The notes under the pieces are model-generated. The model was given only the letters and a program-made list of their open reading frames with translations, ran no database searches and had not been told where the DNA came from. Of a stretch of DNA of 64,000 bases, positions 9,303-14,450 are shown piece after piece; the first letter of the stretch is position 1, and each line of letters begins with the position of its first letter. This DNA is from Escherichia phage vB_EcoM_ECO78: the sequence record PP526941.1. One strand, 5' to 3'. Both the position numbers and the translations under genes were made by a program.

Positions 9303-11567
9303 TCATAATTTACAGGATGAACAATCTTCAGCTTTTGGAGTTTCTATTTCATAATCATCAGTACCAGAACCGTCACGGGTATTATGATAATAGAAATTTT
9401 TTCCGCCAAAATACCAAAAATACAAAAGGTCATCAATCATTATTGACATTGGAACCTTTCCTTTTGGAAAAATCTGCGGGTCATAATATGTATTTGCTGA
9501 AGCTGATTGACATACCCATTTCAGCATAATAGCTACCTGTGTAAGATAAGGTTTATTGCCTTTCTTAGCTAATTTCCACGTATAATCATAGAGGTCTATG
9601 TTATGTTCAATATTGGGCACGACTTGATTAAAGGAGCCCTCTTTTGATTCTTTAACAGAGACTGGTCCACGTGGAGGCTCGATACCGTTTGTACTGTTAG
9701 AAACTTGGGAAGATGACTCACATGGCATAAGTGCTGATAATGTGCTATTACGGATGCCAAAGAGCTTAAGGTCTTCCCGCAGCGACGACCAGTCACAAAC
9801 GTATTTTGGAGCTGCGATTTGGTCAATCTTTTTATTGTACCAGTCGATAGGTAATTCGCCTCGAGACCAACGAGTGTCTGAATAATATTCGCAAGGTCCT
9901 TTTTCTTTGGCGAGCTTAATGGATGCTTTAATGAGTCCATACTGTAATCTCTCAAATAGTTCATGTGTTAAATCGTTAGCATCTTCATAAGAAGCAAAGT
10001 TACTTGCCAGCCAAGCTGCATAGTTAGTAACACCTACACCGAGGTTACGACGCTTTTTAGCTTTTTCTGCTTCAGGAACTGGATATCCTTGGTAATCCAA
10101 AAGATTATCAAGAGCACGAACTTGAACTTCTGCCAATTCATTAATTTTATCTTGGTCTTGCCAATCGAAGTTATCCAACACAAACGCAGATAACGTACAC
10201 AATCCAATTTCGGCATCAGGGCTATTCACATCATTTGTTGGAATAGCAATTTCACAGCACAAGTTACTCTGACGAATAGGTGCCTTTTCACGAATAAACG
10301 GAGTGTAGTTATTCGTATTATCAATGAACTGTACATAAATCCTTGCTGTTCCTGAACGTTCAGTCATGAGCAATTCAAACAGTTCACGGGCTTTAATACG
10401 CTTTTTACGAATATTAGGGTCTTTTTCTGCTGCTTCGTATAATTCGCGGAAACGGTCTTGGTCTTTAAAATAAGAATAATAAAGCTCGCCACCCATTTCA
10501 TGCGGACTGAACAAAGTAATGTAATCGTTCTTTCCAAAACGTTCCATCATCAAATCATTCAGCTGAACACCATAATCCATATGACGAATGCGGTTTTCTT
10601 CTACGCCTTTGTTATTTTTCAAAACGAGAAGATTTTCAACTTCCAAATGCCAAATAGGATAATAAGCAGTAGCAGCGCCGCCACGAATTCCACCCTGTGA
10701 ACATGATTTAACTGCGGTCTGAAAATGTTTCCAAAAAGGAATAACACCAGTATGGCGTACTTCACCCATGCCAATCTTAGAACCTTCGGCACGAATCATA
10801 CCAACGTTAATACCAATTCCAGCACGTTTGGAGATATATTCAACAATCGAAGCGGAAGCCTTATTGATAGACTTCAATGAATCACCTGCCTCAATAACAA
10901 CGCATGAACTAAACTGCCGAGTTGGAGTACGACAACCAGCCATAATAGGAGTTGGCAATGAAATCTGTCGAGTAGATACCGCTTCATAAAAACGGATAAC
11001 ATGTTTTAATCTATCAACAGGTTCATCTTGATGCAATGCCATTCCAATAGCCATAAATGCAAACTGCGGAGTTTCATAAATTTGACCAGTGGTTTTATCT
11101 TTAACTAAATATTTTTCTTTTAATTGCATCGCCCCGGAATAAGTAAATTCCATATCCCGCTCGTGCTTAATTTTTGATTCTAAAAATGTAATTTCTTCTG
11201 CTGAATATTTTGACAATAATTCAGGGTCATATTTACCTTCATTTACACAATAAGAAATATGGTCAATAAATGAACGTGGTTCATACTGCCCGTAAACATG
11301 TTTACGAAGAGCAAACATTAAACAGCGTGCAGCTACATATTGATAATCAGGTTCTTCAACCGAAATAGAATTCGCAGCGGCCTTAATGACAATAGTCTGA
11401 ATATCATCAGTTGTCATTCCATCACGGAGATAAGATTTAATGTTTTCATATAATTCATAAGGATCTACTGATGTTCCCTCAGCTGCCCAAGATAAAACTT
11501 TAATAATTTTTTGTGGGTCAAAGCTCTGAGAAACACCACTACTTTTGATAACATTAATTAATTGCAT
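9303..11567 (-). CDS. nrdA: ribonucleotide reductase alpha subunit (754 aa)
   Basis: Class I RNR large subunit; T4 NrdA size. Confidence 0.95.
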   Translation of the reverse strand: MQLINVIKSSGVSQSFDPQKIIKVLSWAAEGTSVDPYELYENIKSYLRDGMTTDDIQTIVIKAAANSISVEEPDYQYVAARCLMFALRKHVYGQYEPRSFIDHISYCVNEGKYDPELLSKYSAEEITFLESKIKHERDMEFTYSGAMQLKEKYLVKDKTTGQIYETPQFAFMAIGMALHQDEPVDRLKHVIRFYEAVSTRQISLPTPIMAGCRTPTRQFSSCVVIEAGDSLKSINKASASIVEYISKRAGIGINVGMIRAEGSKIGMGEVRHTGVIPFWKHFQTAVKSCSQGGIRGGAATAYYPIWHLEVENLLVLKNNKGVEENRIRHMDYGVQLNDLMMERFGKNDYITLFSPHEMGGELYYSYFKDQDRFRELYEAAEKDPNIRKKRIKARELFELLMTERSGTARIYVQFIDNTNNYTPFIREKAPIRQSNLCCEIAIPTNDVNSPDAEIGLCTLSAFVLDNFDWQDQDKINELAEVQVRALDNLLDYQGYPVPEAEKAKKRRNLGVGVTNYAAWLASNFASYEDANDLTHELFERLQYGLIKASIKLAKEKGPCEYYSDTRWSRGELPIDWYNKKIDQIAAPKYVCDWSSLREDLKLFGIRNSTLSALMPCESSSQVSNSTNGIEPPRGPVSVKESKEGSFNQVVPNIEHNIDLYDYTWKLAKKGNKPYLTQVAIMLKWVCQSASANTYYDPQIFPKGKVPMSIMIDDLLYFWYFGGKNFYYHNTRDGSGTDDYEIETPKAEDCSSCKL

Positions 11568-11884
11568 AAGTCCTCAACTTGAAAATCGTCTTTAAACAAT
11601 CGGTTAACTATATGAGCTATTATATCACCATGACACGGCTTTGGTTTACATGTGCATCCTAGCCTCATTCCACGTAAAGGCTCTAAATGTGCTTTAGTTA
11701 TTTCTCCGGATTTAATTCGACGTATAAAATCTTTTTTGAATAATTCAATGGCAGCCTCCCGGCTGCCAGCATCTTTACCGACGTAATTTCCCCAAAATGT
11801 ACCACGGTGAATATTAACATCAAAGTCGGATTTGTATTTATTCACTACCCGGCATAGACGGCCCGGTTGGTAATAATTCTTCAT
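11558..11884 (-). CDS. hypothetical Cys/His-containing protein (108 aa, T4 nrdA.1 position)
   Basis: ORF overlapping nrdA start; CTC...PCHGD motif. Confidence 0.5.
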
Positions 11885-12101
11885 ATTGTTTTTCCGTTAA
11901 AACAGTAATATCGTAGTAACAGTCAGAAGAAGTTTTAACTGTAGAAATTTTATTATCAAAATACTCACGAGTCATTTTATGAGTATAATACTTTTTACCA
12001 TAAATGATAATAGGTTGTTCTGGTCCTGGAACTTCTAACTCACTTGGGTTAGGAAGTGTAAAAAGAACAACGCCAGAAATATCTTTAAATCGTAAAATCA
12101 T
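11838..12101 (-). CDS. hypothetical protein (87 aa, T4 nrdA.2 position)
   Basis: ORF overlapping td stop. Confidence 0.45.
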
Positions 12102-12958
12102 ATTGCCATTTTCCCTTTAATTGCTGGATGCGATTCATAATTTTCAAGGATAAAATCTTTCGGTTTCATGTATTCAGTTAACCAGTAAAGCTGTGTTTCG
12201 GTGTCACAATTTCCAAACTCTATAGGCCAATCAATTTTAAGTTCACATAGTTCTTTAGGCTCACGACGTAAAATTTCTTTACATTGCTCAGTATGATTCA
12301 TATAGATGTGAGTATTACCACCAGAAAATATCAAATCTCCTGGGATAAGATTACACATCTTAGCCACAATATGCGTCAAGGCAGCGTACGAGGCAATATT
12401 GAATGGCAAGCCCAAGAAAACATCTACACTTCTTTGGTACCATTGTAAATCAAGATAACCATTACGCACATTAAACTGATAGAACATATGACAGGGCGGT
12501 AATGCCATTTGATTGATTTCAGCTGGATTCCATGCTGAAACGATTTGACGTCGATCAGTTGGTAATTTTTTAATACGATCAATAGTTTCAACTAATTGAT
12601 CCACACCACCGAAATCACGCCATTGTTTACCGTATATAGGACCAAGTTCACCACTATGATATCCTAGGTCTTTAGCCTGGTTTTCATAGTTATCGTCCCA
12701 AATAGTTTTACCTTGAATAAGACTACCATGAGTGCGAAGACGTAAATCATTAACATTGGTAGAACCGGAAATAAACCATAGAAGCTCAGCAATGCATGCA
12801 TTCCAGGCGAGCTTCTTAGTCGTTACTGCAGGAAAACCTTTAGTTAAATCCCAGCGTAATTTAGTACCGAACAAAGCAATTGTTCCTGTGCCCGTTCGGT
12901 CATCGGTTTCATAGCCGTTTTCAAGAATGTCTTTAATTAAATCTTGGTATTGTTTCAT
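12098..12958 (-). CDS. td: thymidylate synthase, contiguous (no intron)
   Basis: 286 aa ThyA with catalytic PPCH motif in one frame. Confidence 0.95.
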
Positions 12959-13002
12959 TTAGCACCTTATATAAATTATAATACATTTTATGAAGCTAAT
13001 AA

Positions 13003-13350
13003 TCAATACGGTTTAGCATCAAATTTTCTTTCAATTTCAGGCGTAAAATACAATTCTTTACCACGCTTGGAAAAGCGACCAATAATATGATAATTATTCT
13101 CATCAAACGTGATATTGCCGATATCCATAGCTTTCAACCAAATATCGATATTTCTGTCAAGCTTTATATCAAAATTCCAATATGGAGAACTATTACCAAA
13201 AATACTACAAGCGGATTCAGTGAAACAACTGCTATAAATCTTGTCTTTAGGAACTACTAATTGATAGACACCTTTAATAAACTGAGGACCCTGCCATTTT
13301 GGTTGTTTCGCGTCTTTTTCTAATAGAATAGGGTAATAATTAAAATTCAT
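13003..13350 (-). CDS. hypothetical protein (115 aa from first ATG; 119 aa if GTG at 13362)
   Basis: ORF between frd and td; no recognisable motif. Confidence 0.45.
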   Translation of the reverse strand: MNFNYYPILLEKDAKQPKWQGPQFIKGVYQLVVPKDKIYSSCFTESACSIFGNSSPYWNFDIKLDRNIDIWLKAMDIGNITFDENNYHIIGRFSKRGKELYFTPEIERKFDAKPY

Positions 13351-13370
13351 ATTTTCCGCCACGTGTTATT

Positions 13371-14197
<827 letters not shown>

Positions 14198-14207
14198 ATT
14201 ATTTTCC

Positions 14208-14450
14208 TTAAACAGACTTTTTCACAATTTTCCAATCAACTTTAAACTGCTCGACGTCAGAATGGTAAATCCAGAATCCTGCGCTTTCTCCGTCTTCATA
14301 AAGAGGACATCCATCGCATTCATCTTCCCACCCCATATCGCGTAAAAGATGTTCAGCTTTTTCAACAAGTTCAGAATCTTTACCAATGATATTAAAATAC
14401 CATTTACCTCTAACTTCTGAATCTTTGATGCTCTGACGCTGTAATCTCAT
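14208..14450 (-). CDS. hypothetical protein (80 aa)
   Basis: ORF preceded by early promoter. Confidence 0.5.
   Translation of the reverse strand: MRLQRQSIKDSEVRGKWYFNIIGKDSELVEKAEHLLRDMGWEDECDGCPLYEDGESAGFWIYHSDVEQFKVDWKIVKKSV

Follow-up and report, generated by a model that had tools for sequence, protein, structure and literature searches.

What fills the interval between the dihydrofolate reductase gene frd and the thymidylate synthase gene td in relatives of bacteriophage T4, and is it a gene at all? We addressed this in Escherichia phage vB_EcoM_ECO78 (record PP526941.1), using a 64,000-nucleotide (nt) stretch of its genome, hereafter the window. The original prediction, made from the letters of the window, described an extra open reading frame (ORF) of 115–119 amino acids (aa) between the two genes at 13003–13362, and the program-made ORF list bears out these coordinates. 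The T4 arrangement that it gave for comparison is also accurate: in NC_000866 the end of frd and the start of td overlap as ATGA in ...TATAAATGAAACAATACC, with no ORF between them and no ortholog at the junction. On balance we think that the product of this interval, here called ORF A, is probably encoded by a genuine conserved accessory gene, belonging to a small cassette that fills the frd-td slot throughout enterobacterial Tevenvirinae.

The gene between frd and td

The interval was read as follows:

13003–13362, minus strand: ORF between frd and td as entered in the ORF list, GTG start, 119 aa, MAENMNFNYYPILLEKDAKQPKWQ... / MAENMNFNYYPILLEK...
13003–13350, minus strand: ORF A coding sequence, PHROG 1928 family, 115 aa, from ATG at 13350 to stop TGA at 13005–13003
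13351–13362, minus strand: possible N-terminal extension from GTG 13362, giving 119 aa (sequence read)

The most likely start is ATG 13350, giving a 115-aa product, because this ATG is the annotated start in RB33, PHB12 and Killian and because the ortholog in contig L006 (63% identical) uses the corresponding ATG, one that in this contig overlaps the stop codon of frd. GTG 13362 is kept in relatives, yet the annotated start is the ATG, and 13351–13362 is more likely a 5′ leader than coding sequence, with a weak Shine-Dalgarno-like GGCGGA at 13360–13355.

Codon-aligned comparisons indicate that ORF A is a real gene under strong purifying selection. The window and T2 copies differ at 18 nucleotides and at no amino acid, and the ratio of non-synonymous to synonymous substitution rates (dN/dS) is 0.00–0.05 among close relatives and 0.07–0.26 against two metagenomic orthologs of 63–66% identity. 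Homologs of 26–66% identity keep both the length and the motifs of the protein. The gene is single-copy in the regions scanned: searches of the rest of the window and of T4 at 1–78 kb and 136–148 kb found no paralog.

The gene has been catalogued before. Its product matches the PHROG 1928 profile (E=9.5e-36, residues 8–115 on positions 2–125 of 126), as do all 23 aligned relatives, and the exact 115-aa sequence occurs on 341 contigs at NCBI, always under the name ‘hypothetical protein’. ORF A is therefore already known as PHROG 1928 or the hypothetical protein ‘RB32ORF229c’, to which no function is assigned. A megablast search with 12800–13600 matched 518 phage records, 352 of which cover the full query including ORF A, and tblastn located the protein in 580 phage records. 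These comprise 362 at 90% identity or more (T2, RB3, RB14, RB32, where it is ‘RB32ORF229c’, RB51, PST, Shfl2 and one Mosigvirus) and 218 below 60% (Jiaodavirus, Kanagawavirus, Karamvirus-like phages, Gelderlandvirus, Marfavirus, Moonvirus, Winklervirus and others). A HMMER profile scan of 1.84 billion representative proteins returned 22 matches: 20 are phage proteins of 95–116 aa, none is cellular, and the remaining two (P0021 and P0023) were discarded as repetitive artefacts. Foldseek against BFVD found nothing beyond uncharacterised proteins of T4-like phages, and literature searches on RB32ORF229c, PHROG 1928 and the frd-td region found nothing on ORF A and no experimental phenotype. The review by Petrov et al. 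(2010; PMC2993671) names frd and td only among auxiliary metabolism genes.

One further feature of the coding sequence is a 22-nt inverted repeat, 20/22 complementary, whose arms lie at 11867–11888, in the start-codon region of the downstream gene nrdA.1, and at 13178–13199, ORF A codons 55–62, both on the same transcript strand. A functional pairing was rejected: in T2, Killian and relatives from IMG/VR only 15–16 of the 22 positions can pair and compensatory changes are absent, and the complementarity is probably due to chance.

Occupants of the slot and the T4 junction

We surveyed the slot in the window and 26 fetched loci, scanning each with the family profile together with frd, td and ORF C queries (ORF C being a second type of occupant, listed below). 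The family is present in 26 of these sequences, 25 loci and the window, and always lies between frd and td; the T4 slot is empty. Outside Tequatrovirus and Mosigvirus, 15 of 16 loci hold two family members in tandem (A and its paralog B), Mineola being the exception, and hhalign links the second member to the family at 98.4% and 97.2% probability. Paralog B carries an insertion of ~15 aa in the b1-b2 loop (L002–L007 and L018–L027, frd-td interval), and the order of the stronger and the weaker profile match is reversed in L021. In five loci, from Kanagawavirus, Marfavirus, CIP9-type phages and the unclassified contig L006, ORF C follows the A-B pair. Stop and start codons overlap at the gene boundaries of the slot almost throughout.

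1358–1564 of L012, minus strand, and 4670–4879 of L006, plus strand: ORF C, 68 aa, alternative occupant of the frd-td slot

ORF C stands alone between frd and td in ~135 close T4 relatives (Shinka, pSs-1, Sf21, PYPS2T and others), where it is 81% identical to the ORF C of outgroup contig L006. Homologs of 40–44% identity are present in unrelated Phapecoctavirus phages of ~150 kb, which suggests that ORF C has moved horizontally. One record labels it DUF4858; our searches gave no Pfam match.

Among close T4 relatives, then, the slot holds A in ~360 records and C only in ~135, and is empty, as in T4, in 32. A 49-mer probe found the T4-type junction complete in just these 32 records, mostly T4 itself and a few isolates (G28, JEP6). 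The presence or absence of ORF A varies among phages that are otherwise 94–98% identical. By these counts ORF A is the common state and the abutting frd and td of T4 the rare one, and the word ‘extra’ in the original prediction does not suit a gene carried by ~360 close T4 relatives, including T2, RB14, RB32 and RB51, and by ~220 phages of other Tevenvirinae genera.

The flanking genes of T4 are 95–96% identical to those of the window, and the 3′ end of frd (...GTATATAAATGA) is identical; T4 is without the 416 bp between the TAAATGAAA repeats, hence without ORF A, and its td carries the I-TevI group I intron, which the td of the window does not. A repeat search showed that the 416 bp absent from T4 are bracketed by a 15-nt direct repeat (TAAATGAAAYAAYAC) of 13/15 identity and spacing 416, whose 9-mer core TAAATGAAA occurs seven times in the 64 kb:

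13363–13377, minus strand: upstream repeat copy TAAATGAAATAACAC, spanning the stop codon of frd and the remnant ATG-AAA-TAA
12947–12961, minus strand: downstream repeat copy TAAATGAAACAATAC, containing the td start codon

Recombination between the two copies would yield the T4 sequence exactly, the T4 junction being one merged copy. The outgroup distribution makes loss in the T4 lineage the simpler reading, on which the textbook ATGA overlap would be the scar of a deletion; the T4 reference genome has the rare state. We propose that the older arrangement was probably frd, A, its paralog B, the 68-aa C and td, with stop and start codons overlapping or nearly abutting. Close T4 relatives would have retained A only (the window, T2 and the RB phages), C only, or nothing (T4), the ends of the T4 deletion lying perhaps in the two TAAATGAAA copies or else in ATGA-type junctions. 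Like many other conserved T-even genes without an assigned function, ORF A is out of reach of T4 genetics, and the A-only, C-only and empty alleles that exist in near-isogenic backgrounds amount to natural knock-outs.

Predicted fold and candidate roles

As the original prediction had noted, the product has no recognisable motif: Pfam returned no match, and no credible match was obtained in Pfam, NCBIfam, PADLOC or the PDB with the single sequence, the aligned family or its profile. A comparison with known defence and anti-defence proteins likewise gave no PADLOC profile match and no resemblance in fold to sponges or inhibitors of solved structure. In a 23-sequence alignment Q20, W23, G31, G95, K99 and G101 are invariant, and L13, Y33, N83, F97 and F106 nearly so, with no constellation of conserved acidic, His, Cys or Ser residues for catalysis. 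Family proteins have an isoelectric point of 6.8–9.4 and are rich in aromatic residues. AlphaFold2 gave a predicted local distance difference test score of 63.8 with four sequences and 79.4 with 18 (predicted template modelling score 0.74); the latter model has strands at 10–16, 31–38, 42–54, 66–68, 84–100 and 103–108 and a helix at 72–80. The order of elements predicted by this model, b1-b2-b3-helix-b4-b5, resembles that of the oligonucleotide/oligosaccharide-binding (OB) fold. The invariant residues map to the b1-b2 loop, b2 and the b4-b5 hairpin and are common to paralog B, as is the signature hairpin IIGRFxKxGxxxxFxP. A putative face for binding ssDNA, RNA or oligosaccharide (OB b2-b3 / L12 / L45) is suggested by the positions of W23, Y33, R96, F97 and K99.

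We postulate that the ORF A protein is made together with dihydrofolate reductase (DHFR) and thymidylate synthase (TS) from the same pre-replicative transcripts and may adopt the fold of a small beta-barrel, with five strands in OB-fold order and one helix. Having no conserved catalytic residues, it would act by binding, through an invariant basic and aromatic surface formed by Q20, W23, G31/Y33 and the hairpin G95-R96-F97-x-K99-x-G101. Its most likely ligand would be a nucleic acid or something nucleotide-like, with a host protein as the alternative, and the gene would be dispensable in laboratory hosts, because T4 and the C-only phages are without it. This proposal, in which an OB-like protein expressed along with frd and td binds a ligand without catalysing a reaction, draws on the predicted model and is tentative, possible rather than probable. 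The stronger claim, that PHROG 1928 is a phage-specific ligand-binding beta-barrel family, with paralogs A and B acting as a pair, functionally tied to the DHFR-TS module, we regard as improbable. If true, it could be, for example, a factor that protects or regulates phage synthesis of deoxythymidine monophosphate or that counters host immunity by nucleotide depletion, and loss from the model phage T4 would explain why it has lacked study. What remains of value is a phage-only protein family, so far uncharacterised, that is closely linked to DHFR and TS; the results give no hint of a novel type of system.

Several points weigh against this picture. First, no sequence link connects the family to a characterised one in Pfam, NCBIfam, PADLOC, the PDB or PHROGs. 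Second, conserved synteny says little about a functional link with frd and td, because T4-like genomes are syntenic nearly everywhere. Third, ~30% of close T4 relatives are without ORF A, which speaks against its being central to thymidylate synthesis. Lastly, the change at the T4 junction might have gone either way: the upstream copy of the repeat resembles a decayed td start (ATGAAATAACAC versus ATGAAACAATAC, ATG-AAA-TAA), so an ancient re-insertion into a T4-like junction could fit too.

Of the other explanations, the one that survives best is a role in host takeover or counter-defence, in which a small early protein, instead of binding nucleic acid, would bind and block a host factor, such as an immune or nucleotide-depleting enzyme, and its presence would track host ecology. 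Polymorphism of the slot among phages 94–98% identical would fit such a role, as would the tandem paralogs of other genera, the restriction to phages (20 credible relatives in the 1.84 billion representative proteins), the lack of a catalytic motif and dispensability in T4. However, arms races do not usually leave so low a dN/dS, nor a position that is fixed from genus to genus, and the literature searches turned up no phenotype; we consider this account unlikely.

A role in phage thymidylate synthesis, as an accessory subunit or regulator that binds DHFR or TS, a ligand resembling folate or deoxyuridine monophosphate, or the td/frd mRNA, seems very unlikely. The invariable placement between frd and td and the coupling by overlapping or closely spaced stop and start codons in at least eight genera speak for it, but T4 and the ~135 C-only phages have functional DHFR and TS without ORF A. 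Nor does the protein resemble DHFR itself. A type II (R67) identity, prompted by a local WQG...G-Y likeness and by some GenBank labels, was rejected at an hhalign probability of 0.2% against an R67 sequence, and a type I identity found no DHFR_1 match in Pfam, leaving the ‘putative dihydrofolate reductase’ labels of some records unsupported.

That a mobile element brought ORF A into the frd-td junction as cargo, or that ORF A is a free-standing homing endonuclease which inserted there, is effectively refuted. Its absence from T4, flanking direct repeats (13/15) reminiscent of a target duplication, and the label ‘putative homing endonuclease’ in KarlGJung, FriedrichMiescher and ValerieMcCarty04 had made this worth considering, but no GIY-YIG, HNH, LAGLIDADG or other nuclease match was found in Pfam or PHROGs, no acidic, His or Cys residue is conserved, the gene keeps its place in distant genera and appears to have diverged by vertical descent, and each genome region scanned has one copy. 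A chance ORF in a non-coding spacer, for which one could cite the short length, the AT-rich region and a T2 record that leaves ORF A unannotated, is refuted by the low dN/dS (0–0.13), the purely synonymous differences from T2 and the length and motifs kept by distant homologs.

Surrounding sequence and comparison with known systems

The features that flank ORF A, with the motif once proposed as its promoter, are these:

13371–13952, minus strand: frd (dihydrofolate reductase), directly upstream (ORF list; phmmer matches in every related locus)
12098–12958, minus strand: td (thymidylate synthase), intronless, directly downstream, 286 aa continuous (phmmer matches)
12959–13002, minus strand: ORF A-td spacer, 44 nt (sequence read)
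13372–13379, minus strand: TATAAATG, supposed late motif, in the last frd codons V-Y-K-stop and identical in T4

A gap of 20 nt separates frd from the ORF A ATG, and td has a Shine-Dalgarno sequence, AAGGTG, at 12968–12963. A TATAAAT-like late motif had been placed just upstream of ORF A. Its letters are indeed there, as TATAAATG at 13379–13372, but they differ from the T4 late promoter consensus TATAAATA, which is found nowhere between 7001 and 16295, and they are frd coding sequence shared with T4; the reading as a late promoter is not supported. A MotA box for td, said possibly to lie inside the 3′ end of ORF A, is not found there at consensus: a consensus box (TGCTT(T/C)A 11–13 nt upstream of TAnnnT) is absent between 1693 and 17648, and TGCTAAA at 13018–13012, within ORF A, has two core mismatches. 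A weak one-mismatch candidate, AGCTTCA-N12-TAATTT at 12997–12973, sits in the spacer, downstream of the ORF A stop. Sites of this stringency number 40 against 19.8 expected, about half being chance, and the start site predicted for the candidate would land on the td Shine-Dalgarno sequence. The spacer also holds weak promoter-like matches, TTGATT-N17-TATTAT from 13006 (inside the ORF A stop codon) and TATAAT at 12980–12975; a generic sigma-70 scan of the region is not enriched (14 found, 10.2 expected). An AT-rich 30-nt segment of the spacer is conserved in Tequatrovirus and missing from Mosigvirus PHB12; it has no second copy in the window, so it is not a repeated regulatory cassette there.

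In relatives the presence of a td intron is independent of the slot occupant, a split td accompanying ORF A in L014 and ORF C in L012. Upstream, an 81-aa ORF at 13952–14197 (minus strand) lies between frd.1 (14208–14450) and frd, overlapping the frd start. It is present in T2, RB33, Shinka and pSs-1, has no Pfam match, and in T4 only a 71-bp gap is found at its place; it is a second gene of the frd cluster that T4 is missing. Downstream of td, homologs of nrdA.1 (DUF4326) and nrdA.2 (DUF5496) follow at 11558–11884 and 11838–12101 (minus strand), as in T4.

T-even phages encode a number of small, non-enzymatic early accessory proteins, e.g. Dmd, Arn, TifA and Acb2. These are likewise small, encoded in early regions, dispensable in the laboratory and variable among relatives; no sequence or structural similarity to ORF A was detected. 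Among known systems, the OB-fold nucleic-acid-binding domains of RPA32, Teb1, HIN, S1/CSD and the bacterial single-stranded DNA-binding protein SSB may also come close to the predicted model. The closest known counterpart is PHROG 1928 / RB32ORF229c of T2, RB14, RB32, RB51, Shfl2, PST and other T-even phages, which is the same gene, with 99–100% identical proteins in the same frd-td position and no difference from ORF A of the window.
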